The notes below the pieces were generated by a model. That model did not search any database. It saw only the letters and a list, made by a program, of their open reading frames with translations, and was not told the DNA's origin. The position numbers and the translations under genes were made by a program. Positions 1,668 to 46,130 of a stretch of 64,000 nt of DNA are shown here, piece after piece (the stretch's first letter is position 1; each line of letters begins with the position of its first letter). The DNA is from Nitrospirota bacterium. GTDB taxonomy: Bacteria; Nitrospirota; UBA9217. Where the stretch lies: positions 13,261 through 77,260 of the forward strand of contig JAYTJE010000028.1 of the NCBI GenBank assembly GCA_043731355.1, read 5' to 3'.

Positions 1668-1754
1668 AGGAATTCCTTATAACAGGGTTCGGGGTCCAGG
1701 GCCAGGGTTCAGGTAAAAAAAGAGTGGACCCCGGCTGCCGGACCCTGGCTGCTA

Positions 1755-3912: not shown

Positions 3913-3972
3913 GGAAATACAGAAGTCAGGAGACAGGTGTCAGAAGTCAGGAAAAATGAAACTGCTATTCCC

Positions 3973-4692
3973 TTACCCTTCTGTATTCTGTCTCCTGTTT
4001 TCTGGCTCCTGGCTTCTTAGTTTTTCAAGCGCTTCCTTTGCCGCTTTTTGCTCAGCTTCCTTCTTGCTTTTGCCTGTTCCACGGCCAGAGACCCGCCCCT
4101 TGACCAGCAGTTCCACGTTGAACTGCTTCTGGTGGTCCGGACCGGTCTCTGAGGCGACGCGGTATTCAGGCAACTGCTTCAGGCGCTCCTGGCAGAGTTC
4201 CTGGAGCGCTGTTTTGTAGTCGAGACTGGCGCGTGAAGCGCAGCTTCTTTTTATCACGTCCTCAAAAAAGCGAAGGATGAAAGCTTCAGCGGCCTCCTTG
4301 CCTGCATCGAGGTACAGTGAGGCAATGAGCGCTTCCAGCGCATCCGCCAGCAGCGAGTCCTTGTCGCGTCCGCCGGTCTGTTCTTCGCCCTTGCCAAGCA
4401 GCAGGTAGGAACCGAGTGCCAGGGCGCGGCCGATCGCGGCAAGCGCGGGTTCGCTCACGATCGCTGCCCGGAGTCTCGAAAGATCTCCTTCGGTCGAGTC
4501 CGGGCAGGTCCTCATGAGATGCTCGCTGACGACGAGCGAGAGGACGGCGTCGCCGAGGAACTCCATCCGTTCATTGTGGTAGGGGGTCTTGTTCTCGTTG
4601 GCAAAGGACTTGTGCGTCAAAGCGCGTTCAAGGAGCCGGGGGTCCTTGAACGGGTGGAAAATGCTTTGCTCAAGCTCTGCGAGTGTGCGCAT
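3973..4692 (-). CDS. rnc: Ribonuclease III
   Basis: RNase III signature ERMEFLGDAVL plus C-terminal dsRBD (GPDHQKQF..GRGTGKSKKEAEQ). The ORF track extends to 4872, but the conserved N-terminus starts at MRTLAELEQ (nt 4692), 1 nt after the fabF stop. Confidence 0.85.
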   Translation of the reverse strand: MRTLAELEQSIFHPFKDPRLLERALTHKSFANENKTPYHNERMEFLGDAVLSLVVSEHLMRTCPDSTEGDLSRLRAAIVSEPALAAIGRALALGSYLLLGKGEEQTGGRDKDSLLADALEALIASLYLDAGKEAAEAFILRFFEDVIKRSCASRASLDYKTALQELCQERLKQLPEYRVASETGPDHQKQFNVELLVKGRVSGRGTGKSKKEAEQKAAKEALEKLRSQEPENRRQNTEG

Positions 4693-4693
4693 C

Positions 4694-5935
4694 TTAGTCC
4701 CGGAAGCGCTTGAACACGAGGCACGCATTCGTGCCGCCAAAACCGAAGGAATTGGACATGACGACATCAACCTGCGCTTTTCGGGCGGTGTGCGGGATAT
4801 AGTCCAGGTCGCATTCCGGATCGGGATTTTCAAGATTGATGGTCGGCGGAAGCACCCCGCGGTCCATCGCAAGAATGGAGATAACGGCCTCCACGCCGCC
4901 GGCGGCCCCGAGCAGATGGCCGGTCATGGATTTCGTGGAGCTTACCGGGATCTTGTAGGCATGCTCGCCGAAGACGCTCTTGATGGCAATGGTCTCGAGC
5001 TCGTCGCCGTACTTGGTGGAGGTCCCGTGAGCATTGATGTAGCCCATCTCCGACGGCGCCACGCCCGCGTCCTTGATCGCCATGTTCATGCAGCGCGCGG
5101 CGCCTTCGCCGTTCGGGGCGGGTGAGGTGATATGGTAGGCGTCTCCCGAGGCGCCATAGCCGACTATCTCGGCATAGATGCGGGCCCCGCGCGCGCGCGC
5201 GGTTTCTAGCTCTTCAAGGACCACCACGCCGGAGCCTTCTCCCATGATGAACCCGTCGCGGCCGGCGTCAAAGGGGCGGCTTGCGCGCCGCGGCTCGTCG
5301 TTCCGGGTCGAGAGGGCCTTCATGGCGTTGAAACCGCCCACGGCGGTCACGCAGAGGCACGATTCGGCGCCGCCCGCGATCATGGCGTCGGCATCGCCGC
5401 GCTGGATCCATTTAAAGGCATCGCCGATTGAGTGGGTCCCTGTCGCGCAGGCGGTAACGATGCTGATATTGGGGCCTTTAGCGCCGAAGCGCATGGAAAT
5501 ATTACCCGCTGCCTCGTTGATGATGATCATGGGGATAAAAAAAGGGGTCACTTTGCGAATGCCGCGCTCGAGATATATTTTGTAATACTTCTCGATGGCC
5601 GGGAGCCCGCCCATGCCCGCGCTGACGATGACGCCGACGCGCTCGGCATTTTCCGGCGTGATTTTGAGGCCGGACATATCCATGGCCATCTGGCTGGCCG
5701 CGATCGCGAGATGGATAAAACGGTCCATCTTCTTGACCTCTTTGGGCTCGATGTACTTTTCCGGCTTGAAGCCGTGGATCTCCCCCGCGATTTGCGTCGG
5801 AATCGTTTTGTCATCGAACTGGGTAATGGGGCCGATGCCGGATTTTCCGCTGATCAGGCCTTCCCAGCTTGCTTCCGTATCGAGCCCGACGGGCGTTACC
5901 ATGCCGACGCCGGTTACAACAACTCTTCTCTTCAA
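4694..5935 (-). CDS. fabF: 3-oxoacyl-ACP synthase II
   Basis: 413 aa KAS II; active-site region [12 protein letters not shown] and C-terminal HGTSTKYGD / GHLLGAAG motifs. Confidence 0.92.
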
Positions 5936-9749: not shown

Positions 9750-9851
9750 TATGAACTCCTTTTGAATCAGAGCAGGTAAGAGGGTAAGAGGGAAAAAAGG
9801 TACGAAAAAAATGCCTACCTTCTTACCTTCATACCATCCTACCTTCCCGGT

Positions 9852-17732: not shown

Positions 17733-17748
17733 CGCTATCCCTCCTCCG
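17710..17748 (+). terminator. GC-rich hairpin at the 3' end of the TMTC-like gene
   Basis: GCGGAGGAGGGGAT-gcgctagcgc-TATCCCTCCTCCGC near-perfect inverted repeat overlapping the stop codon; no T-run. It is immediately followed by the palindromic element. Confidence 0.4.
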
Positions 17749-17749
17749 C

Positions 17750-17812
17750 AATTCAAAATTCAACAAGAAATATTCAATACGTTGAATCTTGAATCTTGAA
17801 TCTTGAATCCGT
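17750..17812. repeat. Palindromic REP-like element, copy A (AATTCAAAATTCAA-loop-TTGAATC x4)
   Basis: Stem-loop with a tandem TTGAATC right arm, between convergent genes. Near-identical to copy B at ~25645..25690. It overlaps the last codons of bioA. Confidence 0.5.
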
Positions 17813-19342: not shown

Positions 19343-20839
19343 ATGGTAGCTAAAAAGAGATGGTATGTTGCGGCTTCTTTGCTGCTTCTTATCGGTATTT
19401 TCGTCGGTCTCCTCCTTGCATCGCGATTGAACCTCATGTCCCCGCTCACCGCCAAGAGTCAGGTGTCGTCCAAATCTGTTGACACCCTGACACAGTTGAG
19501 CGAGGCGCTGTCGGAAGTGGCTGCGGTATCGACCCCCTCGGTCGTGAATATCTCAACAACACGGGTCATCAAGTCATCGGATGAAGCGCCCTTCGATTTC
19601 TTCGACGATCCCTTTTTCAGGCGGTTCTTCGGCGACCAGTTGCCGCGCCAGGATGCGCCGAAAGAACACAAAGAACAGAGCCTCGGTTCCGGGGTCATCG
19701 TTTCAGCGGACGGGTACATTGTCACGAACAACCATGTGATAGAAAAGGCGCAGGAGATCAAGGTCCTGCTGGGCGATAAGCGGGATTTCAAGGCAAGGCT
19801 TATCGGCGCCGATCCGAAGACCGACATTGCGGTCATCAAGATCGAGGCGAAGGGTCTGCCCGCGCTTGCCTGGGGGGACGCGAGCAAGCTGAAGGTCGGC
19901 GAGCTCGTGTTCGCCATCGGGAACCCGTTCGGGCTGAACCAGACGGTGACCATGGGTGTCATCAGCGCCGTGGGACGGGCCAATGTCGGGATTGCCGACT
20001 ATGAGGATTTTATCCAGACCGATGCGGCGATAAACCCCGGCAATTCCGGGGGGGCGCTGCTTAATGCCCGGGGCGAACTGGTCGGCATCAATACCGCGAT
20101 CGTTTCACGGACGGGCGGCTACCAGGGGATCGGTTTTGCGGTGCCGAGCAGCATGGCCCGTCAGGTGATGGACAGCCTGGTCAAATACAAAAAAGTGGTC
20201 CGGGGCTGGCTCGGGGTGAGCATTCAGGAAGTGACGTCCGAGCTTGCCGAGGAATTCGGCGTTAAAAATCTTAAAGGAGCGCTGGTCAGCCGTGTCATGA
20301 AAGGCAGTCCCGCGGACAATGCGGGCATCAGGCAGGGTGACGTTATTCTCCAGGTTAACGGAAAAGACGTGGAGGACACGGGACACCTGCGGAACATGGT
20401 TTCCCAAGCTCCTATCGCCTCGAAAGTGAGGATCAGGCTGCTCCGGCAGAAAAAGGAGCTCGAGGTTGAGGTCGTGGTGTCTGAACTTCCCCGAAAGTTG
20501 GCGGAGGCAGCGCCCTCGCGGGACGAAGAATCGGGGAATCATGAGGCAAGCGGCGCCCTTGCGGGTCTCGTCGTGCGGGAGTTGACTCCCGAGCTTGCCG
20601 GGCATTTTGGCCTCGACGAGAGCGAGACGGGTGTCGTGATCGTCAAGACCGACCCGGACAGCAAGGCCTATGAGGCCGGGATCAGGCCCGGCGATATGGT
20701 CCTTCAGATAAACCAGAAGAACATCCCGGGCCTGGAAGCATACAAAAAAGTCGCGAAGACGCTCCGGTCCAAGGACAGGGTCCTGCTGCTGGTCCGGCGG
20801 AACGGCGAGGACCTGTTTGTTACGCTGAGACCTGAATAA
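19343..20839 (+). CDS. degP: Periplasmic serine endoprotease DegP/HtrA (trypsin domain + 2 PDZ)
   Basis: GNSGGAL catalytic-serine motif and two PDZ-like C-terminal segments. Start at the ATG 12 nt after AGGAGG (MVAKKRWY..., TM anchor). Confidence 0.88.
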   Translation: MVAKKRWYVAASLLLLIGIFVGLLLASRLNLMSPLTAKSQVSSKSVDTLTQLSEALSEVAAVSTPSVVNISTTRVIKSSDEAPFDFFDDPFFRRFFGDQLPRQDAPKEHKEQSLGSGVIVSADGYIVTNNHVIEKAQEIKVLLGDKRDFKARLIGADPKTDIAVIKIEAKGLPALAWGDASKLKVGELVFAIGNPFGLNQTVTMGVISAVGRANVGIADYEDFIQTDAAINPGNSGGALLNARGELVGINTAIVSRTGGYQGIGFAVPSSMARQVMDSLVKYKKVVRGWLGVSIQEVTSELAEEFGVKNLKGALVSRVMKGSPADNAGIRQGDVILQVNGKDVEDTGHLRNMVSQAPIASKVRIRLLRQKKELEVEVVVSELPRKLAEAAPSRDEESGNHEASGALAGLVVRELTPELAGHFGLDESETGVVIVKTDPDSKAYEAGIRPGDMVLQINQKNIPGLEAYKKVAKTLRSKDRVLLLVRRNGEDLFVTLRPE

Positions 20840-20902
20840 CGCATTCCGTTGGGTGAATTTCATAATTTGTTCGATCTTACTTAAGGAGGAGGTGAAATAA
20901 TC

Positions 20903-21904
20903 ATGGGACTTATTCTTATTCGAATGCTATTTGTATGCGTCGGCACGTTGCTCGGCTATTATCTTCCGACGACGCAAATAGAAGGACAAGTCGGTAAATT
21001 TGAAGGCATGGCGATAGGCTTCGGAATTGCCGTACTCATCGTTCTTACGGAATTTTTATTCAGACGGGTTTCCTTAAAGGTCATTGTCGGAGGAATTCTT
21101 GGTTTTGTCCTTGGCCTGACCTCGGCGGCGATCATTGCCTCTCCCCTGAAGGGGCTTTTTGAACGCCAATATTTTCAATTCATCCTGTTGCTGATGAACG
21201 GTTTTTTCGGGTATCTGGGCATCACCATCGGTGTTAGGGAGGGTGAACGGTTCAACCCCTCGAACATCAAGAAGCTGTTTAAGGGCGGGGCCGACGAAAA
21301 TATCAAGATCATGGACACCAGCGTGATCATCGACGGTCGCATCGCCGACGTCTGCGAGACGGAGTTTCTCGACGGCGCCATCATCATTCCCCAGTTTATT
21401 CTGCATGAACTCCAGCATATTGCCGATTCCTCGGACTCATTGAAGCGGGCGCGCGGCCGTCGCGGTCTCGATATCCTTCACCGGATCCAGAAAATGAGCC
21501 ACATGGAGGTCCGGATCGTGGAAGATGATTTCCCGAAGATCCGGGAGGTGGACAGCAAGCTCATTGCGCTGGCCAAAAAATTCAGCGCAAAGGTGATCAC
21601 CAACGATTTCAACCTGAACAAGGTGGCGGAGCTTCAGGGGGTCAAAGTGCTCAATATCAACGACCTGTCCAATGCCGTCAAGCCCGTGGCGCTTCCGGGA
21701 GAGAGTATGCGCGTTTTTGTGCTGAAAGAAGGCAAGGAGCCGGGCCAGGGAGTTGCCTACCTGGATGACGGCACGATGATCGTGGTGGAGAATGGCCGGA
21801 AGTACATCAACAAAAATATGGAAGTGTCTGTCACGAGCGTGCTCCAGACCGCGGCTGGCAGGATGATCTTTACCAAGCTCAGGGAAGATGGGGAGCATGA
21901 ATAG
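20903..21904 (+). CDS. PIN + TRAM domain membrane protein (YacL-like)
   Basis: Four N-terminal TM helices, PIN-like acidic core (IMDTSVIIDGR...D), C-terminal TRAM-like beta domain. AGGAGG RBS 8 nt upstream. Confidence 0.7.
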   Translation: MGLILIRMLFVCVGTLLGYYLPTTQIEGQVGKFEGMAIGFGIAVLIVLTEFLFRRVSLKVIVGGILGFVLGLTSAAIIASPLKGLFERQYFQFILLLMNGFFGYLGITIGVREGERFNPSNIKKLFKGGADENIKIMDTSVIIDGRIADVCETEFLDGAIIIPQFILHELQHIADSSDSLKRARGRRGLDILHRIQKMSHMEVRIVEDDFPKIREVDSKLIALAKKFSAKVITNDFNLNKVAELQGVKVLNINDLSNAVKPVALPGESMRVFVLKEGKEPGQGVAYLDDGTMIVVENGRKYINKNMEVSVTSVLQTAAGRMIFTKLREDGEHE

Positions 21905-22095
21905 CAGAAGTCGGACAGTAGACAGGAGACGGGAGACGGGAGACGGGAGACGGGAGACAGGAGACAGGAGACGGGAGACAGGGAGACGGGAGACGGGGAG
22001 ACAGGAGACAACGGCTTTTGACTCAGTCTGTTAGTCTGCCAGTCTGTTAGTCTGCCGGTCTGTTAGTCTATCGGTCTATCAGTTTATTTACAGGA
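21905..22095. repeat. Tandem heptanucleotide array (GGAGACR)n + conserved junction ACAACGGCTTTTGACTCAGTCT + (CAGTCTGTTAGTCTGC)n; empty IVS-like site (no ORF)
   Basis: About 14 GGAGACR heptads, then the 22-nt junction also found at 24100, then degenerate complementary AGTCTGY repeats. It lies between the PIN-TRAM gene and yebC. Confidence 0.6.
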
Positions 22096-22101
22096 GGTTT
22101 C

Positions 22102-22845
22102 ATGTCAGGTCATTCAAAGTGGGCGACAACGAAGCATAAAAAAGCTGCTACTGACGCAAAACGAGGAAAGATCTTCACGAAGATCGGCAAAGAGCTCACC
22201 GTTGCCGCCAGGCTGGGCGGCGGTGACCCTGACGGCAACCCGCGTCTCAGGACCGCGGTCGCCAAGGCAAAATCGGTCAGCCTGCCCGCCGAGAACATCA
22301 AACGGGCGATCCAGAAGGGCACGGGCGAACTGCCGGGTGTATCCTACGAGGAAATAGTCTACGAAGGATACGGGCCGGGCGGTGTTGCGGTCATTATCGA
22401 GTCCCTGACGGACAACCGGAACAGGACTGTTTCCGAGATCCGGAATATTTTCAGCAAGGCAGGCAGCAATATGGGTGAGGCGGGCTGCGTTTCCTGGATG
22501 TTCCATAAAAAAGGGTACCTGGTGGTAAACGGCGCCAAGGCCAACGAAGACCAGCTGATGGCGCTGGCGTTGGATGCCGGCGCCGAGGACATGCAGGTCG
22601 AGGACGGGAATTTCGTCATCACCACTGCTCTGAGCGACTTCGAAAAGGTGAAAAAAGCGCTCGAAGACGCGGCGGTGCCCCTGGAGCTCGCCGAGCTCAC
22701 CATGATCCCGCAGACCTACGTAAAGCTCGACGGCAAGGAGGCGCAGCAGATGCTGCGGCTTGTTGATACGCTCGAGGATAATGATGACGTCCAGAACGTG
22801 TATGCGAACTTCGATATCCCTGACGAGATTCTGAATGCGGAATAA
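22102..22845 (+). CDS. yebC: YebC/PmpR family DNA-binding transcriptional regulator
   Basis: 247 aa; [16 protein letters not shown]-terminus diagnostic of YebC. Confidence 0.9.
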
Positions 22846-22859
22846 GTGACGGAGAATGT

Positions 22860-23423
22860 ATGAGAGTTATGGGGATCGATCCGGGGACCTTGACGAGCGG
22901 CTATGGAATCGTTGCGGAAGAGGACCATCGGCTGTTCCATGTAGTGTCGGGAGGAATCAGTCCCTCGGCAAAGCAGCCGCTCCCGAAACGGCTTAAAAAA
23001 ATATATGAAGAGCTCGAGAAAATCATCGAAAAATACCGGCCGAACTGCGTTGTGGTGGAGGACCTTTTTGTTTCCAAAAATATGCAGTCGGCGCTCAAGC
23101 TCGGCCATGCCCGTGGCGTGGCCATCCTTGCGGCAATGAACGCCGGACTGCCGGTATTCGAGTATGCTCCGACGGAGGTAAAGCAGGCGGTTGTGGGCAC
23201 CGGGAAAGCGGAAAAAAAACAGGTGCAGCTGATGGTGAAAACACTGCTCTGTCTGCCGAAGGTCCCGCATCCGGTCGATGCCGCCGATGCCCTGGCCGCC
23301 GCTATCTGTCATATCCATTCTTCGCGTCTCAGGGAAATACTCAATAATCCTTCATCCCTCCGGCAAACCGGCAGGGGTGTTAGTCCGCGGGGCGCGATCG
23401 TTCGCAAGCCCCAGGACGACTGA
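22860..23423 (+). CDS. ruvC: Crossover junction endodeoxyribonuclease RuvC
   Basis: MRVMGIDPGTLTSGYG N-terminus with catalytic Asp; 187 aa. Confidence 0.88.
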   Translation: MRVMGIDPGTLTSGYGIVAEEDHRLFHVVSGGISPSAKQPLPKRLKKIYEELEKIIEKYRPNCVVVEDLFVSKNMQSALKLGHARGVAILAAMNAGLPVFEYAPTEVKQAVVGTGKAEKKQVQLMVKTLLCLPKVPHPVDAADALAAAICHIHSSRLREILNNPSSLRQTGRGVSPRGAIVRKPQDD

Positions 23424-23424
23424 G

Positions 23425-24024
23425 ATGATCGCGTCGCTCACCGGCAGGCTCACGCGCAAGGCCCCCGATTATCTCATCCTTGATGTCTCCGGTGTCGGGT
23501 ACCAGGTCTTTGTGCCGCTTTCCACCTTTTACCGCATGCCGGACGAGGGTGCTGAGGCGAGCCTCCATATTCATACCCATTTGCGTGAGGACATACTTGC
23601 ACTCTACGGGTTCTCGGAGCCGGCGGAAAAGGACCTTTTCCTTATCCTGCTCGGCGTGTCCGGCATCGGCCCCAAGCTCGCCCTTACGGTCCTTTCCAGT
23701 CTGACAACGGACGAGATCGCGGCCGCTATCCAGTCGTCGGATGACCAAAAGCTCTATGCCATACCGGGCATCGGCAAGAAGACGGCTGCCCGAATGATCC
23801 TGGAACTGAAGGACAAGGTCAAGCATCTGGTCACTGCTTCAGCACCGGCCGGACGTCCGCGGCAGGCAGACGTCGATGTGGACGATGCCGTGTCGGCGCT
23901 GATGAACCTGGGCTATAAACGAAACCTTGCTGAGGATGCGGTGCAGATGGTCTTGCGCACTCATCCGGAGCTTTCCGTGGAGGACCTCATTCGCCAGGGG
24001 CTGCAGGCGTTACGGAAGAGATAA
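23425..24024 (+). CDS. ruvA: Holliday junction DNA helicase RuvA
   Basis: MIASLTGRL..YLILDVSGVGYQV N-terminus, HhH motifs (GIGPKLA, IPGIGKKTAARM). Start moved to 23425; the ORF track begins further upstream in the same frame, inside the ruvC 3' end. Confidence 0.88.
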   Translation: MIASLTGRLTRKAPDYLILDVSGVGYQVFVPLSTFYRMPDEGAEASLHIHTHLREDILALYGFSEPAEKDLFLILLGVSGIGPKLALTVLSSLTTDEIAAAIQSSDDQKLYAIPGIGKKTAARMILELKDKVKHLVTASAPAGRPRQADVDVDDAVSALMNLGYKRNLAEDAVQMVLRTHPELSVEDLIRQGLQALRKR

Positions 24025-24027
24025 GAC

Positions 24028-24600
<573 letters not shown>

Positions 24601-24615
24601 CATCCGAGGTAACCA

Positions 24616-25632
24616 GTGACGACGCGAATTGTAGAGCCAGCGAAGGATGAAGGTGATGTTCAGCTCGACCGGAGCCTGCGGCCCGCGCGTTTCAGCGATT
24701 TTGTCGGGCAGGACCGGATCAAGGAAAACCTGAAAGTTTTCATTGACGCGGCCAAGGCCAGGGGCGAAGCGCTGGACCATGTGCTGTTCTGCGGCCCGCC
24801 GGGGCTCGGAAAGACCACCCTGGCGAACATCATTGCCCGGGAGCTCGGGGTCAACCTCAAATCCACCTCCGGCCCCGTGCTGGAACGCGCCGGCGATCTG
24901 GCGGCCATCCTGACCAACCTGCAGCAAGGCGATGTGCTTTTTATCGATGAGATCCACCGTCTCAACCGGGTTGTTGAGGAAGTGCTGTATCCGGCCATGG
25001 AGGACTTTCAACTCGACCTTATCATCGGCCAGGGGCCCGGCGCCCGTTCCATAAAGCTCGATCTCCCGTATTTTACGCTCGTGGGCGCGACCACCCGCAC
25101 CGGGCTGCTCACCTCTCCGCTTCGCGACCGGTTCGGCGTGATCGATCGGCTGAGCTTCTATACGCTCGATGAACTGCGGACCGTCGTGGAGCGCTCGGCG
25201 GCGCTGCTGCACGTTGCGATCGAGCAGGAGGCCGCCGCGATCATCGCCGACCGCTCGCGCGGGACCCCGCGCATAGCGAACCGGCTGCTGCGGAGGGTCC
25301 GGGACTTCGCGCAGGTGCAGGGCGACGGCGTCGTGACCATAGCGGTGGTGAAGAATGCCATGCAGCGGCTTGAGGTCGACGAACGGGGTTTTGACGAAAT
25401 GGACCGCCGACTGCTGCTGACGATCATCGATAAATTCGATGGCGGCCCGGTCGGGCTTGAGACGCTGGCAGCGGCGTTGAATGAAGAACGGGACACGCTG
25501 GAAGATGTCTATGAACCGTTCCTGATCCAGGAGGGGTTTCTCGACCGGACCCCGCGCGGCAGACAGGCGACGAGGCTGGCATACGAGTATTTCGGCAAAA
25601 AACGGCCCCCGGCGCAGGAGCGGCTGCTGTAA
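24616..25632 (+). CDS. ruvB: Holliday junction DNA helicase RuvB
   Basis: Walker [18 protein letters not shown] and the sensor region; GTG start. Confidence 0.92.
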
Positions 25633-25644
25633 CGGTTAGCCGCG

Positions 25645-25690
25645 ATTCAAAATTCAAAAGAAATATTCAATATCTTGAATTTTGAATCTT
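25645..25690. repeat. Palindromic REP-like element, copy B (GATTCAAAATTCAA-loop-TTGAATTTTGAATC)
   Basis: Near-perfect 14-bp inverted repeat with a 17-nt AT-rich loop immediately 3' of ruvB. Same arms and loop as copy A at 17750. Confidence 0.5.
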
Positions 25691-25719
25691 AAATCCGGAC
25701 GATGCACATGGAGTAATTA

Positions 25720-26124
25720 ATGATTGGCCAGGGAGTCAGAACAGCCGTGCTTGCGCTTGTTGTTATTCTGCTTACCGGCGTGGCCTATGAGCGGAACACT
25801 GCGTGGCACACGCTTTTGACCCTTTGGCTGGATGTGGCAGCCAAATCCCCCGGAAAGTCCCGGGTCTTTAACAACCTGGGGAATTGCTACATTCTTGAAG
25901 GCAAGTATTTTAAGGGAATCGAAGCATACCAGCGGGCAGTGGCTTTGGACCGCAATAACATCGAGGCGTACTACAACCTCGGCGTCAATTACGAAAATGT
26001 GGGCATCACCAATCGGGCTGTATATTATTATGATCTGTTCTGCAAGACCGCGCCGGCTTCATACCGGGAGCAGACGGAGCAGGCCTGTAAGCGCGTTGCC
26101 GACCTGACCCGCGGCGTGCGGTAA
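25720..26124 (+). CDS. Small TM + TPR protein, homologous to the C-terminal module of the TMTC-like proteins
   Basis: 134 aa; N-terminal TM helix, then the W..L.LW.D.A.KSPGK.R...NLGN motif shared with 27959, 28699 and the C-termini of 16161, 58772 and 60841. Confidence 0.6.
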   Translation: MIGQGVRTAVLALVVILLTGVAYERNTAWHTLLTLWLDVAAKSPGKSRVFNNLGNCYILEGKYFKGIEAYQRAVALDRNNIEAYYNLGVNYENVGITNRAVYYYDLFCKTAPASYREQTEQACKRVADLTRGVR

Positions 26125-26183
26125 GCACGGTCACACGAATCTTAAAATTGGTTGCGGCCTTAAGGCCGTTCCAGGAGTCCGCC

Positions 26184-26726
26184 ATGAAGATTTTTTTTCA
26201 TATATGCTGCGCTCCCTGCGCTCTGTACCCCTATTACCGCATGAAGGAGGAGGGCATCGAACCGGCCGGTTTTTTTTATAATCCTAATATCCATCCCTAT
26301 CTGGAATACAAAAAACGGCTCGATACGGTGAAGGAATTCTCCGGCAGGGTCGGCCTTGAGGTAGTCTACCGGGATGATTATGACCTTGATGAGTTTCTCG
26401 TCCGGGCTTCCGGCAAGGGGCCGGGGCGCTGCGAGCAGTGCTACCGCATGAGGCTCGAGGCCGCCGCAGCCGCGGCCCGGGAGCGAGGGTTTTCGGCGAT
26501 GACCACGTCGCTTCTCTACAGTAAATTTCAGAAACATGATCTGATCACGGGCATTGGAAGAGAAATGGCGGCGGAGCACGGGATCGAGTTCTATTACGAA
26601 GACTTTCGGCGCGGTTGGCGGGAGGGCATCGTGGAATCAAAGGCCATGGGGCTTTACCGGCAGCAGTATTGCGGCTGCATTTACAGCGAACGGGACCGCT
26701 ATAGAAAAACAGACGCGAACGAGTAA
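26184..26726 (+). CDS. queH: Epoxyqueuosine reductase QueH (DUF208)
   Basis: HICCAPC motif plus downstream CEQCY and CGC cysteines; start at MKIFFHICC, with an AGGAG RBS 6 nt upstream. Confidence 0.8.
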   Translation: MKIFFHICCAPCALYPYYRMKEEGIEPAGFFYNPNIHPYLEYKKRLDTVKEFSGRVGLEVVYRDDYDLDEFLVRASGKGPGRCEQCYRMRLEAAAAAARERGFSAMTTSLLYSKFQKHDLITGIGREMAAEHGIEFYYEDFRRGWREGIVESKAMGLYRQQYCGCIYSERDRYRKTDANE

Positions 26727-26779
26727 AGGCGGTTTTAGACCCGCCCCTGCCAACGTGCCTTGAAAATAAACGTATATCC

Positions 26780-27898
26780 GTGCATAACGAACGAGGCATG
26801 CTTAAAAACTATTTATTCCTCTCCATCATCACCGCCTCAGTCCTGTCTCTGATTCCGGCGCGGGCGCTCTGTTCGGAAACCATCCGCGTGGCCATTGCCG
26901 ACAACCAGAGGAGTATTGTGCTCACGTCCCCCTCCGGGTTCGTGGTGGAGGGGCGCGCCTCTTTGGAGCGGGAGCGGACGATGACGATTGGTGCGTCGTC
27001 AATCGGGCCCCGGCCGCTCCGGGTGCGGTCGGTGGGCGCTTTCATCCGCGTGAACAAAAAAAACTTCCGGGGCTGGGTGGAACTGCGAAAAAAAAAGAAT
27101 GGCCTTCTTCTGGTTGTCAATGAACTGGATATTGAGCTCTATCTGCTGGGGGTGGTTGCCTCCGAGATTCCCCAGGACTGGCATCGTGAGGCGCTGAAAG
27201 CCCAGGCCGTGGCCGCGCGGACCTATGCGTTGTATCAAAAGCGGATGGCGGAGGGCAGGTCCTACCATGTGCTTGCCACGGTGGACAGTCAAATGTATAA
27301 CGGCAGGAGCGGTGAACGGCCCGCCACCTCACAGGCGGTGCAAGAGACGGCGGGGCAGGTCATTGTGTACAACGGGGAGCTGGTCCCCGCTTTTTATCAT
27401 TCGAGCTGCGGCGGACATACGGAAGACGCATCAAAACTGTGGGACGTCAGGGAACCTTACCTTCAGGGTGTAGACTGCGATTGTCAGAATATATCAAAAT
27501 ACGGCCAGTGGGAGCGGCGGTTCAGTGTTGACACGGTCGCCCATGCGCTTCGCAAGCGCGGCTACCCTGTCAGGCATATCACCGCCGTGACCCTAGGCGC
27601 CATCACACCCGCCGGCAGGGTGAAGGACGTGGCCCTCCGATATGGCGGAGGCATCTCGGTGGTCCCCGCCGAAGCGCTCCGCGCTGCTGTCGGGAATGCG
27701 CTGCTCCCCAGTGTGTTCTTCGAACTGGAGCTGTCGCCGACGGGCGGAGAACTGGTGTTCTCCGGCAGGGGGATGGGGCATGGTGTTGGGTTGTGCCAGT
27801 GGGGCGCTGAAGAAATGGCGCGGCGGAAATTCGGTTACCAGGCGATCCTCGGTCACTACTACCCAGGAACAGGTCTCGCTGCCATGGAAGAGCTGTGA
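26780..27898 (+). CDS. SpoIID/LytB domain protein
   Basis: 372 aa; signal peptide, then AQAVAARTYALYQ and YHSSCGGHTED motifs typical of SpoIID/LytB. Confidence 0.8.
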   Translation: MHNERGMLKNYLFLSIITASVLSLIPARALCSETIRVAIADNQRSIVLTSPSGFVVEGRASLERERTMTIGASSIGPRPLRVRSVGAFIRVNKKNFRGWVELRKKKNGLLLVVNELDIELYLLGVVASEIPQDWHREALKAQAVAARTYALYQKRMAEGRSYHVLATVDSQMYNGRSGERPATSQAVQETAGQVIVYNGELVPAFYHSSCGGHTEDASKLWDVREPYLQGVDCDCQNISKYGQWERRFSVDTVAHALRKRGYPVRHITAVTLGAITPAGRVKDVALRYGGGISVVPAEALRAAVGNALLPSVFFELELSPTGGELVFSGRGMGHGVGLCQWGAEEMARRKFGYQAILGHYYPGTGLAAMEEL

Positions 27899-44238: not shown

Positions 44239-44323
44239 TTTGGTGTTCGGAGCAAACCCAGAGCGCCGATTGCGCATTTCAACTCCGAACCCCGAACGCC
44301 GAACATATTTAAAGGGGGGTCAC

Positions 44324-44692: not shown

Positions 44693-45326
44693 AGAGCTGA
44701 AGCGCGACTATCGTGCCAGGCGGCCGCGGATCGTTAAAAGGCTTGCGGAGTTCAAGCAGGTGTACCGCAAGGGCGATGCCGTAATCTTCGAGGAGCTCTG
44801 CTACTGTATTCTGACCGCGGGCAGCAGCGCCAGGATGGGGATGCGCACGGTCGATGCTCTTCGTGACCTTCTGCCGCGAGGGACCTTGCAGGAGCTGCAA
44901 CAGCGCGCCCGGACAAGCCACGCCCGGTTCTGGCGGGTACGGCCGTCCTACATCGTGCATACGCGGGAACGTCTCAGGGAGCGTTGCGGTCTCAGGATGC
45001 GGTCCTTTATCGGTTCTTTTGAAAGCCCCGAAGCCCGGCGGGATTTTTTTGCATCGGACAAGGGGATCAAGGGGCTGGGATATAAGGAAGCGAGCCACTT
45101 TCTCAGGAACATCGGATTCGGCGGCTACGCGATCATAGACAAGCATATCCTGAACAGCCTGCGCGAGCTGGGGGTCATTGGAAAGCGCACACGGTCGCCA
45201 ACGACGCGCGCACAATATCTTGCAATAGAAAAAAAACTGGCCCATTTCTCCCGCGAGCTCGGAATCGATATGGACCATTTGGACCTGCTGCTGTGGTCGC
45301 GGAAGACCGGGGAGATTTTGAAATGA
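44670..45326 (+). CDS. ogg: N-glycosylase/DNA lyase, archaeal-type 8-oxoguanine DNA glycosylase (Ogg2 family)
   Basis: HhH-GPD: GIKGLGYKEASHFLRNIGF...AIIDKHI; 218 aa; overlaps the rhodanese gene 3' end by 23 nt. Confidence 0.7.
   Translation: MPGSEFIEELKRDYRARRPRIVKRLAEFKQVYRKGDAVIFEELCYCILTAGSSARMGMRTVDALRDLLPRGTLQELQQRARTSHARFWRVRPSYIVHTRERLRERCGLRMRSFIGSFESPEARRDFFASDKGIKGLGYKEASHFLRNIGFGGYAIIDKHILNSLRELGVIGKRTRSPTTRAQYLAIEKKLAHFSRELGIDMDHLDLLLWSRKTGEILK

Positions 45327-46130
<804 letters not shown>

Follow-up and report, generated by a model that had tools for sequence, protein, structure and literature searches.

A gene-less repeat hairpin between the PIN-TRAM and yebC genes of a Nitrospirota bacterium, a probable relative of 23S rRNA intervening sequences

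Intervening sequences (IVSs) of 23S rRNA that lack an open reading frame (ORF) occur in Salmonella and Campylobacter. For IVSs that carry an ORF, terminal inverted repeats, excision by RNase III and a suspected mobility have been established (PMC4990558). The element described here stems from a 64,000-nt stretch of DNA from a Nitrospirota bacterium, hereafter referred to as the window. It is an ORF-less repeat hairpin of 182 nt (21906..22087, + strand) that lies between a PIN-TRAM gene and yebC and represents an insertion or deletion relative to the closest relative found. In our judgment, this solo element is probably a complete gene-less and co-transcribed member of a family of IVS-like repeat hairpins that is gained and lost as a unit and whose arms are prone to slippage. 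As part of the same reading, the family would constitute the protein-gene-spacer counterpart of the 23S rRNA IVSs.

The family shares with the 23S rRNA IVSs of Leptospira, Coxiella, Salmonella and Azospirillum a stem of terminal inverted repeats, which in the solo element is a predicted and interrupted one, and an optional ORF for a four-helix-bundle protein (PF05635), which the solo element lacks and a sister copy with the same junction possesses (24197-24550). Further common traits are the location within a host RNA, presumed in the case of the solo element, and a sporadic distribution that suggests mobility (PMC4990558). In contrast to the IVSs, which interrupt a 23S (or 16S) rRNA gene, typically in helix 25 or 45, the solo element is found in an mRNA spacer between protein genes and not in an rRNA gene. 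Moreover, its arms are long, variable in copy number and only partly pairing, and the ORFs of the window reside inside an arm rather than in the loop.

An arm, a junction and a second arm occupy the 197-nt spacer between the PIN-TRAM stop codon (21904) and the yebC start codon (ATG, 22102). The limits of the element were set by blastn of the closest relative (L003) against the window, which gave a break at 21905/22088, with L003 contiguous at 2659/2660. The 5' purine arm (21914..22010, + strand) comprises about 13 GGAGACR heptads, each with a GGAG resembling a Shine-Dalgarno (SD) sequence; Tandem Repeats Finder returned a period of 7 with 13.6 copies, 88% matches and the units GGAGACG/GGAGACA. 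An earlier note on this DNA had counted 14 units; the array itself is confirmed, but the number comes to about 13, with some units measuring 8 nt. It is followed by the conserved junction (22008..22029, + strand), the 22-mer ACAACGGCTTTTGACTCAGTCT, which forms the apical loop region with an unpaired core at about 22011-22023 in the minimum free energy structure. The 3' pyrimidine arm (22024..22085, + strand) contains about seven YAGTCTRY octads and pairs with the 5' arm mainly via AGAC/GUCU blocks; its array at 22024-22077 has a period of 8/16, with 2.9 copies of CAGTCTGTTAGTCTGC and 96% matches (Tandem Repeats Finder). To the right of the insertion, the native spacer (22088..22101, + strand) includes the yebC SD sequence AGGAGG (22092-22097) and aligns with the 15-nt spacer CTTATAGGAGGTTTC of L003.

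No PF05635 ORF was detected between PIN-TRAM and yebC when ORFs, Pfam and NCBIfam were checked. The described combination of a heptad array and a conserved junction without an ORF is thus confirmed by the sequence, Tandem Repeats Finder and the profile searches. With up to three mismatches allowed, the 22-mer has a single other match in the window, ACAACGGCTTTTGATTCAGTCT at 24109-24130, which differs by one C/T exchange and bears out the reported agreement with the region around 24100 at 21 of 22 positions. This similarity also stands out from the background, given that 0.00 matches were expected by chance (100 dinucleotide shuffles, <=3 mismatches). GGAGACR triplets are likewise confined to three loci in the 64 kb (21918-21979, 24049-24110 and 45331-45364, plus the complement at 45991-46080), with 24 matches versus 0 expected. 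The 84-aa minus-strand ORF at 21757-22011 (MSPVSPSPVSLSPVS...) is an antisense reading of the heptads that overlaps the 3' end of PIN-TRAM and is therefore considered spurious, as had been supposed for such SPVS-repeat frames. On the sense strand, (GGGAGAC)4 runs at 21928-21957 and 21975-22003 fit the canonical G3N4-5 quadruplex motif. A G-quadruplex as a conserved feature was rejected, since the GGG runs are not kept in the orthologous element of the relative L013.

Homolog names and the GTDB record in which the junction occurs point to an uncultured Nitrospirota lineage. Several assemblies yielded the corresponding operon (L002, L003, L005, L006, L012, L013 and L014). Nucleotide identity to the window is 91-94% for L003, 87-90% for L012, L013 and L014, and 72-78% for L002, L005 and L006. 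Between PIN-TRAM and yebC, L003 has only 15 nt, tag-CTTATAGGAGGTTTC-atg, without any array, whereas L013 and L014 harbor a solo element in a spacer of 230 nt versus 197 nt in the window, which agrees with that of the window at both ends and has the junction variant AACTGCTTTTGATTTAGTCT. L006 carries a hairpin with a different loop at this site. In L002, which derives from the JANONA01 genome, a one-armed purine array (4215-4293; GCAGTAG...ACAGGAG, about 11 units) joins the yebC SD sequence directly, without loop or partner arm; this could be a hairpin that has lost one half or, alternatively, an array that started from the SD sequence itself. The next spacer, yebC/ruvC, is empty in the window (14 nt) and in L003 (23 nt) and filled with solo elements of 139 nt in L012 (insertion point GTGACGG|AGAAT) and 254 nt in L013. 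Between ruvA and ruvB, the window contains a hairpin plus gene (591 nt), compared with 19 nt in L003 and 35 nt without repeats in L005. L012 and L013 also have a hairpin plus gene here, with 168 versus 228 nt preceding an identical IVS-protein gene, while L006 has a different hairpin and L002 a solo element with the junction and the right end (CTGACTTCTYTCCATCYGAGG) of the window.

The breakpoints relative to L003 are clean at both filled sites of the window (21905/22088 and 24022/24601). Hence, presence/absence polymorphism between the window and L003, L012, L013 and L002 extends over three spacers of one operon, and the orthologous sites show an element that is present, absent or resized from one relative to the next. 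The variation in repeat number that the earlier note anticipated was found at both PIN-TRAM/yebC and ruvA/ruvB. Its description of the locus as an empty site did not survive, as the truly empty sites are those of L003, with spacers of 15 and 19 nt that lack any array. With the topology ((window, L003), L013), the simplest course of events would be that both elements were lost, almost precisely, in the lineage of L003; given the short internal branch, an ancestral polymorphism may be an alternative. L004 shares 99.3% identity with L003, and its contig terminates precisely at the stop codon of PIN-TRAM, where an assembly break would be expected if the sample holds differing alleles.

The sister copy is part of a composite element between ruvA and ruvB (24023..24600, + strand). 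It consists of a purine arm (24025-24111), the junction (24109-24130), a pyrimidine arm (24124-24183), an IVS-protein gene and further pyrimidine repeats (24542-24600). By itself, the segment 24025-24190 is a complete unit of purine arm, loop and pyrimidine arm, and 21900-22101 and 24020-24200 share 83% column identity across arm, junction and arm. The view of the PIN-TRAM/yebC element as a solo copy, i.e. an ORF-less member of the family of the ruvA/ruvB element, is thus upheld. The gene of the composite element, IVP1 (24197..24550, + strand), encodes a four-helix-bundle protein in the 23S rRNA IVS protein family (PF05635, E=2.6e-37; TIGR02436, E=6.9e-36; PDB 2gsc, E=1.6e-17). It starts 66 nt past the junction, within the 3' arm and between direct pyrimidine repeats. 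Compared with its L013 ortholog, IVP1 has a dN/dS of 0.13 and a dS of 0.28, close to the 0.35-0.39 of the flanking genes, and is therefore a gene under maintenance that has been passed on together with its neighbors.

A second cassette (45326..46112, + strand), with a predicted hairpin of -182 kcal/mol, mirrors this layout with the gene inside the 5' arm. A purine array (45326-45425) is followed by IVP2 (45442-45804), a purine arm (45785-45933), a 7-nt loop and the complementary arm (45941-46110), so that IVP2 is bracketed by direct purine repeats. IVP1 and IVP2 are firm members of PF05635/TIGR02436 (E ~1e-36 to 1e-37) with 37% mutual identity, and both match PDB 2gsc. The second cassette is polymorphic as well, being filled in L027 and empty in L028 (58-nt spacer), and it is matched base for base in an independent Logan assembly. 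Together with the ruvA/ruvB solo element of L002, these arrangements show the IVS-protein gene to be a separable module framed by arm repeats.

This modular layout raises the question whether the solo element is itself the relic of an excision, in which an IVS-protein gene once present in one arm was deleted via direct arm repeats and arm, loop and arm were left behind. Both ORFs of the window indeed lie between direct repeats that belong to a single type of arm. Moreover, the ruvA/ruvB solo element of L002 equals the window structure from which the segment between two direct CAGTCT motifs has been taken out, and a truncated gene in L001 (5240-5470) shows decay of the ORF in place. Yet, at PIN-TRAM/yebC, none of the relatives examined contains the ORF (L013 and L014 have the solo element, L002 a half array, L006 another hairpin, and L003 is empty), and five other small ORF-less hairpins of the window are devoid of any ORF trace. 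The junction might be taken for a scar. The ORF-bearing copy, however, has the junction intact, with the ORF 66 nt further downstream in the 3' arm; the junction is therefore the apical loop rather than an excision scar. The earlier note had named absence from related strains without a footprint as a refutation; L003 shows just this, by which the idea of a scar fails and the whole hairpin emerges as the unit of insertion or deletion. Internal deletion was also considered as the origin of the loop. An alignment to four cassette interiors on both strands gave no significant similarity (p 0.42-0.92 versus shuffles), and a seeming match to the 3' end of the ORF (CTTTT...AGTCTGT) is owed mainly to the repeat unit. 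We therefore regard an excision relic as unlikely, if still deserving of attention. The related suggestion of an integration hotspot would fit the position of both window ORFs, which sit inside an arm beside an intact loop.

The truncated four-helix-bundle gene of L001 lies on the minus strand (MKIERFEDIEAWQLARELTRKVYHL...) inside inverted heptad arrays (CAGGTTC... / ...GAACCTT). It appears to be a decaying cassette, intermediate between a full cassette and a solo element.

Ten copies of the junction were found in five genomes, with the consensus AGAC-AAYKGCTTTTGAYTYAGT-CT. Across these copies, only the apical loop of about 13-16 nt is conserved, while the ends are variable arrays, and the same loop joins different arm units (AGTACAA/TGTCTTC in L001; GGAGACA/GACTTCT in L002). 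Junction variants track the genome and not the site: all copies of the window and of JANONA01 read AACGGC...TCAGT, and all copies of L012 and L013 read AAYTGC...TTAGT. Since the variants are genome-specific rather than site-specific, homogenisation or a recent spread within genomes is suggested. Scanning of JGI metagenome contigs for the junction gave no match with a first pattern and only an already recovered contig with a degenerate one. On this basis, the junction family seems to be narrow and limited to a few related Nitrospirota.

The repeated occurrence of loop and 3' arm bears on a further explanation, according to which the heptads are a regulatory microsatellite that slipped from the yebC SD sequence and grew locally into a tuner of yebC translation or transcription with variable copy number. 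Its GGAG units would act as ribosome standby or decoy sites, or the array would form a G-quadruplex. Several observations agree with this idea: GGAG is present in sense orientation in every purine unit, the copy number differs among relatives, (GGGAGAC)4 fits the quadruplex motif, and the (ACAGGAG)n array of L002 runs into the SD sequence (ACAGGAGG-TTTC-ATG) without loop or 3' arm. In addition, a role in regulating translation has been proposed for heptamer arrays near the start codons of Beggiatoaceae and Nostoc genes (PMC4679880; bioRxiv 10.1101/2022.06.06.494920). However, the 22-nt loop and the 3' arm are common to other loci and genomes (ten copies), which implies copying instead of local growth, and IVS-protein genes in unrelated surroundings have these arms on either side. 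GGAG is missing from many hairpins of the family (TTGAATC, GGTAAGA and CAGGGTY units), and the closest relative (L003) has no element at all. Local growth as a regulatory microsatellite is accordingly improbable in our view.

Beyond the operon, IVP1 homologs with 72-76% identity are located in unrelated contexts, namely in the cas6/cas1 and selA/selB spacers, behind parE in a cas locus, and behind a PPIase gene. Every one of them has (nCAGACn)n upstream and (nGTCTGn)n downstream, from which it follows that the arms travel with the gene. On finished plasmids, the IVS-protein family is mostly cyanobacterial, and complementary 7-8-nt arrays flank 9-10 of the 11 plasmid-borne homologs inspected. 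Examples are (GGGAGTA)8...(TCCCTAC)5 in Nostoc edaphicum, (CAGGAGT)n...(CTCCTGA)n on pNPUN01 of N. punctiforme and (GGGAACA)4...(TGTTCCC)7 in Nostoc C052. An exception is Pseudanabaena galeata pPg_01 (L034), in which the arrays are direct and not inverted, with (AAAGCTA)15 upstream and (AAAGCCA)n downstream. In one of the 11, Azospirillum lipoferum AZO_p2 (L038), the gene lies within the LSU rRNA (Rfam RF02541, E=1.7e-170) and is therefore a genuine 23S rRNA IVS. Its arms CAGAGGACGGATGACAGAGGACGG... / ...CCGTCCTCTGTCTTCTGTCATCCG consist of CRGNNGA-type heptads much like the arms in the window. Across these plasmids and contigs, an arm-gene-arm architecture is thus shown to surround homologous genes in different phyla and in a true rRNA IVS.

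IVS-protein genes with their arms also occur inside cas operons (L015-L020 and the plasmid loci L033, L034 and L036), in arrangements such as cas6-IVP-cas1/cas4 and cmr2-IVP-cmr3. The presence of IVS-protein genes in cas loci has been recorded without explanation (PMC3936711; PMC10910872). Judging from their arms, these genes look like insertions into operon spacers rather than genes with a Cas function, and such arm-flanked insertions probably underlie part of the published "CRISPR-associated 23S_rRNA_IVP" calls.

Miniature inverted-repeat transposable elements (MITEs), the Correia elements of Neisseria and the enterobacterial REP/BIME and ERIC sequences are non-autonomous intergenic inverted-repeat elements. 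Like these, the solo element is small, ORF-less, intergenic, presumably co-transcribed and predicted to form a stem-loop; it is present or absent among close relatives and has a longer, ORF-bearing form. Unlike MITEs and Correia elements, it shows neither a target-site duplication nor a conserved terminal inverted repeat, and conservation is seen in its loop, with tandem arrays of variable make-up as arms. An imperfect palindrome of about 35 nt with a conserved head, as in REP/BIME, was not seen in the solo element, and the window yielded no partner of the RAYT (Y1 transposase) type. A phase-variable contingency locus has a variable copy number in common with the solo element, whose array differs in lying wholly between a stop codon and an SD sequence, with no promoter-like site called on its + strand. 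CRISPR arrays are different in that they combine repeats of 23-50 nt with unique spacers, as opposed to the contiguous 7-8-nt units found here.

Tandem heptamers are the most abundant intergenic periodic repeats in prokaryotes, with "no clear clue" to their function (PMC6344855), and for Beggiatoaceae and Nostoc a regulatory role of those close to start codons has been under discussion (PMC4679880; bioRxiv 10.1101/2022.06.06.494920). The cyanobacterial STRR and TTTTGAA/TTCAAAA repeats and the TAACTGA repeats of Beggiatoaceae resemble the elements of the window as period-7 arrays near start codons (PMC4679880; 10.1101/2022.06.06.494920; PMC6344855), and some units are identical or nearly identical across phyla, such as TTCAAAA, or CAGGAGT in Nostoc punctiforme. 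The STRR and Beggiatoaceae repeats were described as direct arrays, and neither a hairpin partner arm nor a four-helix-bundle gene figures in those accounts. IVP2 matches bAvd (PF22296, E=8e-10, with a score just under the curated cut-off) and weakly the NCBIfam Avd model, and belongs to the same four-helix-bundle fold family as Avd of diversity-generating retroelements. In contrast to Avd, it scores under the Avd equivalog cut-off, and neither a reverse transcriptase nor a template/variable repeat pair is located near IVP1 or IVP2. Neither gene-less derivatives nor IVS-protein genes that lie between protein genes and have heptad arms on both sides were found described in the literature surveyed, in which subscription journals were thinly covered.

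As RNA, the solo element is predicted to form a single long hairpin (-62.2 kcal/mol, z -2.6) whose tip is the junction; the copy at 24020 behaves in the same way (-58.1 kcal/mol, z -3.7). The predicted stem of the solo element is interrupted every 4-6 bp. In the 24025 copy, the stem-base units (CAGACGGA TAGACGGG) and units of the CCGTCTGT type are true complements, because of which the loop-proximal GGAGACR units look like a later expansion that affected one arm only. These folds also bear on a role at the DNA level, in which the paired repeats would bind a nucleoid or architectural protein of the IHF/HU type or extrude as a cruciform. In Geobacter metallireducens, dozens of sites in which two sets of 3-5 tandem repeats of 7-9 nt are paired on opposite strands have been read as regulator or IHF/HU binding sites (PMC2700814). 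The anatomy of the class 1-3 global regulator binding sites described there, e.g. between proB and proA, matches that of the solo element in its 7-9-nt tandem pairs, opposite strands, variable spacing and intergenic location, including within operons. A conserved loop between variable arms would suit a binding site as well. Nevertheless, the unit sequences differ, no link to an IVS protein or to presence/absence was described for Geobacter, and the Geobacter proposal is itself speculative (PMC2700814). In the solo element, the hairpin is weak as DNA (-24.5 kcal/mol), compared with -60 kcal/mol for the sense RNA and -42 kcal/mol for the antisense RNA. The loop was checked by eye as an IHF site and discarded, as it does not fit the consensus WATCAANNNNTTR. 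A DNA-level site is therefore a very improbable explanation.

Several points weigh against the interpretation of the solo element as a complete, RNA-borne hairpin of a mobile family. The z-scores of both folds are modest, and the arms of the solo element are only partly complementary, since a 7-nt period faces an 8-nt period in 4-bp AGAC/GUCU blocks. Its purine arm would even find better partners elsewhere, namely the TCTCCTG arms at 45941-46110 (-43.0 kcal/mol) and 3979-4017 (-33.4 kcal/mol), as opposed to its own partner (-26.7 kcal/mol). Sense RNA folds better than antisense RNA in 8/8 co-oriented members of the GGAGAC/CAGTAG group, i.e. seven junction-bearing copies and the 45785-46110 hairpin, but these represent only about four independent loci. 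The solo element has no Rfam match at E<=1 (region 20000-27000 scanned), and no intrinsic terminator was called on its + strand. With regard to mobility, no consistent or convincing target-site duplication was found at four filled/empty locus pairs, and no transposase was detected in the window, the part of the genome searched; the only associated gene encodes a four-helix-bundle protein without known recombinase activity. The direction of change rests on a short internal branch (yebC dS 0.27 to L003 and 0.35 to L013). Finally, all relatives are metagenome assemblies, in which repeat lengths are open to mis-assembly, a concern that is countered by the identity of L013 and L014, which come from different JGI samples.

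In its extreme form, this concern would render the element an assembly artefact or a spurious repeat without biological unity. The source and all relatives are metagenome-derived, and contigs often break at the arrays (L004, L026). However, independent assemblies of the two JGI samples contain this element with identical ends, related copies are present in ENA and NCBI assemblies, and the second cassette is exact in the Logan assembly. We give an artefact next to no credence.

If the solo element is indeed a complete member of an IVS-like family, the following scenario may be envisaged. Filling precisely the position that separates the stop codon of PIN-TRAM from the SD sequence of yebC, it is presumably transcribed within a yacL-yebC-ruvCAB operon, and the transcript is predicted to form a long, regularly interrupted stem. 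Arm length and unit type, which are polymorphic among the relatives, would change by slippage or unequal recombination. The IVS-protein gene would be an optional module in the loop or an arm; because it is bracketed by direct arm repeats, recombination between these could remove and possibly insert it. Most likely, the element would be largely selfish or near-neutral and tolerated at the stop-to-SD position, where an insertion spares both genes. Side effects on mRNA processing, stability or coupling could arise, for example, if the stem serves as an RNase III target or as a protective 3' structure.

These elements tie together the IVS protein family, the excess of intergenic tandem heptamers and small hairpin insertions in operons, which are usually treated separately. 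Tens of thousands of genes of this family are annotated just as "four helix bundle protein". Close relatives offer alleles of identical operon sites that are filled, gene-less or truly empty, which provides material for studying the movement of the cassettes and their effects on polycistronic mRNA. A considerably bolder proposal, which we put forward with little confidence, is that prokaryotic tandem heptamer arrays are largely the arms or relics of one widespread class of IVS-like mobile cassettes whose only gene encodes an Avd-like four-helix-bundle protein. As parts of the same tentative proposal, this protein would recognize or propagate its own arms, perhaps with the help of a host polymerase or reverse transcriptase, and the solo elements would be non-autonomous offspring and landing pads. 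Should the link between IVS cassettes and the heptamer excess hold genome-wide, the significance of the solo element would be greater.

On the practical side, the arrays break short-read assemblies and create spurious ORFs. Contigs with IVS-protein genes are mostly 1-3 kb long and end in or at arrays (L026 ends inside one); the elements systematically fragment short-read metagenome assemblies.

Both genes that border the solo element are on the + strand. The upstream PIN-TRAM gene (20903..21904) is YacL-like (Pfam PF01850 and PF01938; Nitrospirota homologs are named YacL/PIN), and yebC (22102..22845) matches Pfam PF01709/PF20772 and NCBIfam NF001030 (361 bits). For the YebC protein of the window, an exact look-up gave no record.

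Six further ORF-less hairpins with 7-8-nt arm units are located in intergenic gaps of the window. Two consist of heptads, with CAGGGTY ... GGACCCYGGCTGC at 1683..1752 and CAGAAGT/CAGGAGA ... TTCTGTA/TCTCCTG at 3920..4017, and a third pairs GGTAAGAG ... CCTACCTTCTTACC (9775..9846). The hairpin at 17748..17811 combines AATTCAA ... TTGAATC x4 with the loop AAGAAATATTCAATAC, and the one 3' of ruvB (25644..25697) belongs to the same heptad and loop family; the two have the loop AGAAATATTCAATA and TTCAAAA/TTGAATC heptads in common. The TTCAAAA/TTTTGAA heptamer also sits upstream of many genes of Nostoc PCC 7120 (bioRxiv 10.1101/2022.06.06.494920), so unit sequences recur across phyla. The sixth, a small inverted heptad pair with GTTCGG ... 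(CCGAACN)3, occupies the spacer between a sensor kinase gene and a rhodanese gene (44240..44310). When the other five were cross-paired, the best partner of each arm was its own arm; as far as the modeled pairing goes, this shows inverted complementarity to be the organizing principle of the hairpin family.

The longest-ORF reading at 44240 carries a spurious N-terminal extension (NPERRLRISTPNPERR) translated from the inverted heptad pair. The hairpin at 3920-4017 overlaps the 3' end of a gene called as RNase III (rnc, ~3973-4700, minus strand) from its dsRBD-like C-terminal sequence. The rnc ORF passes the usual C-terminus (...EALEKLRS) into the hairpin before it reaches a stop codon, and a repeat hairpin thus reaches into the 3' end of the very gene whose product is the likeliest stem-cutting enzyme.

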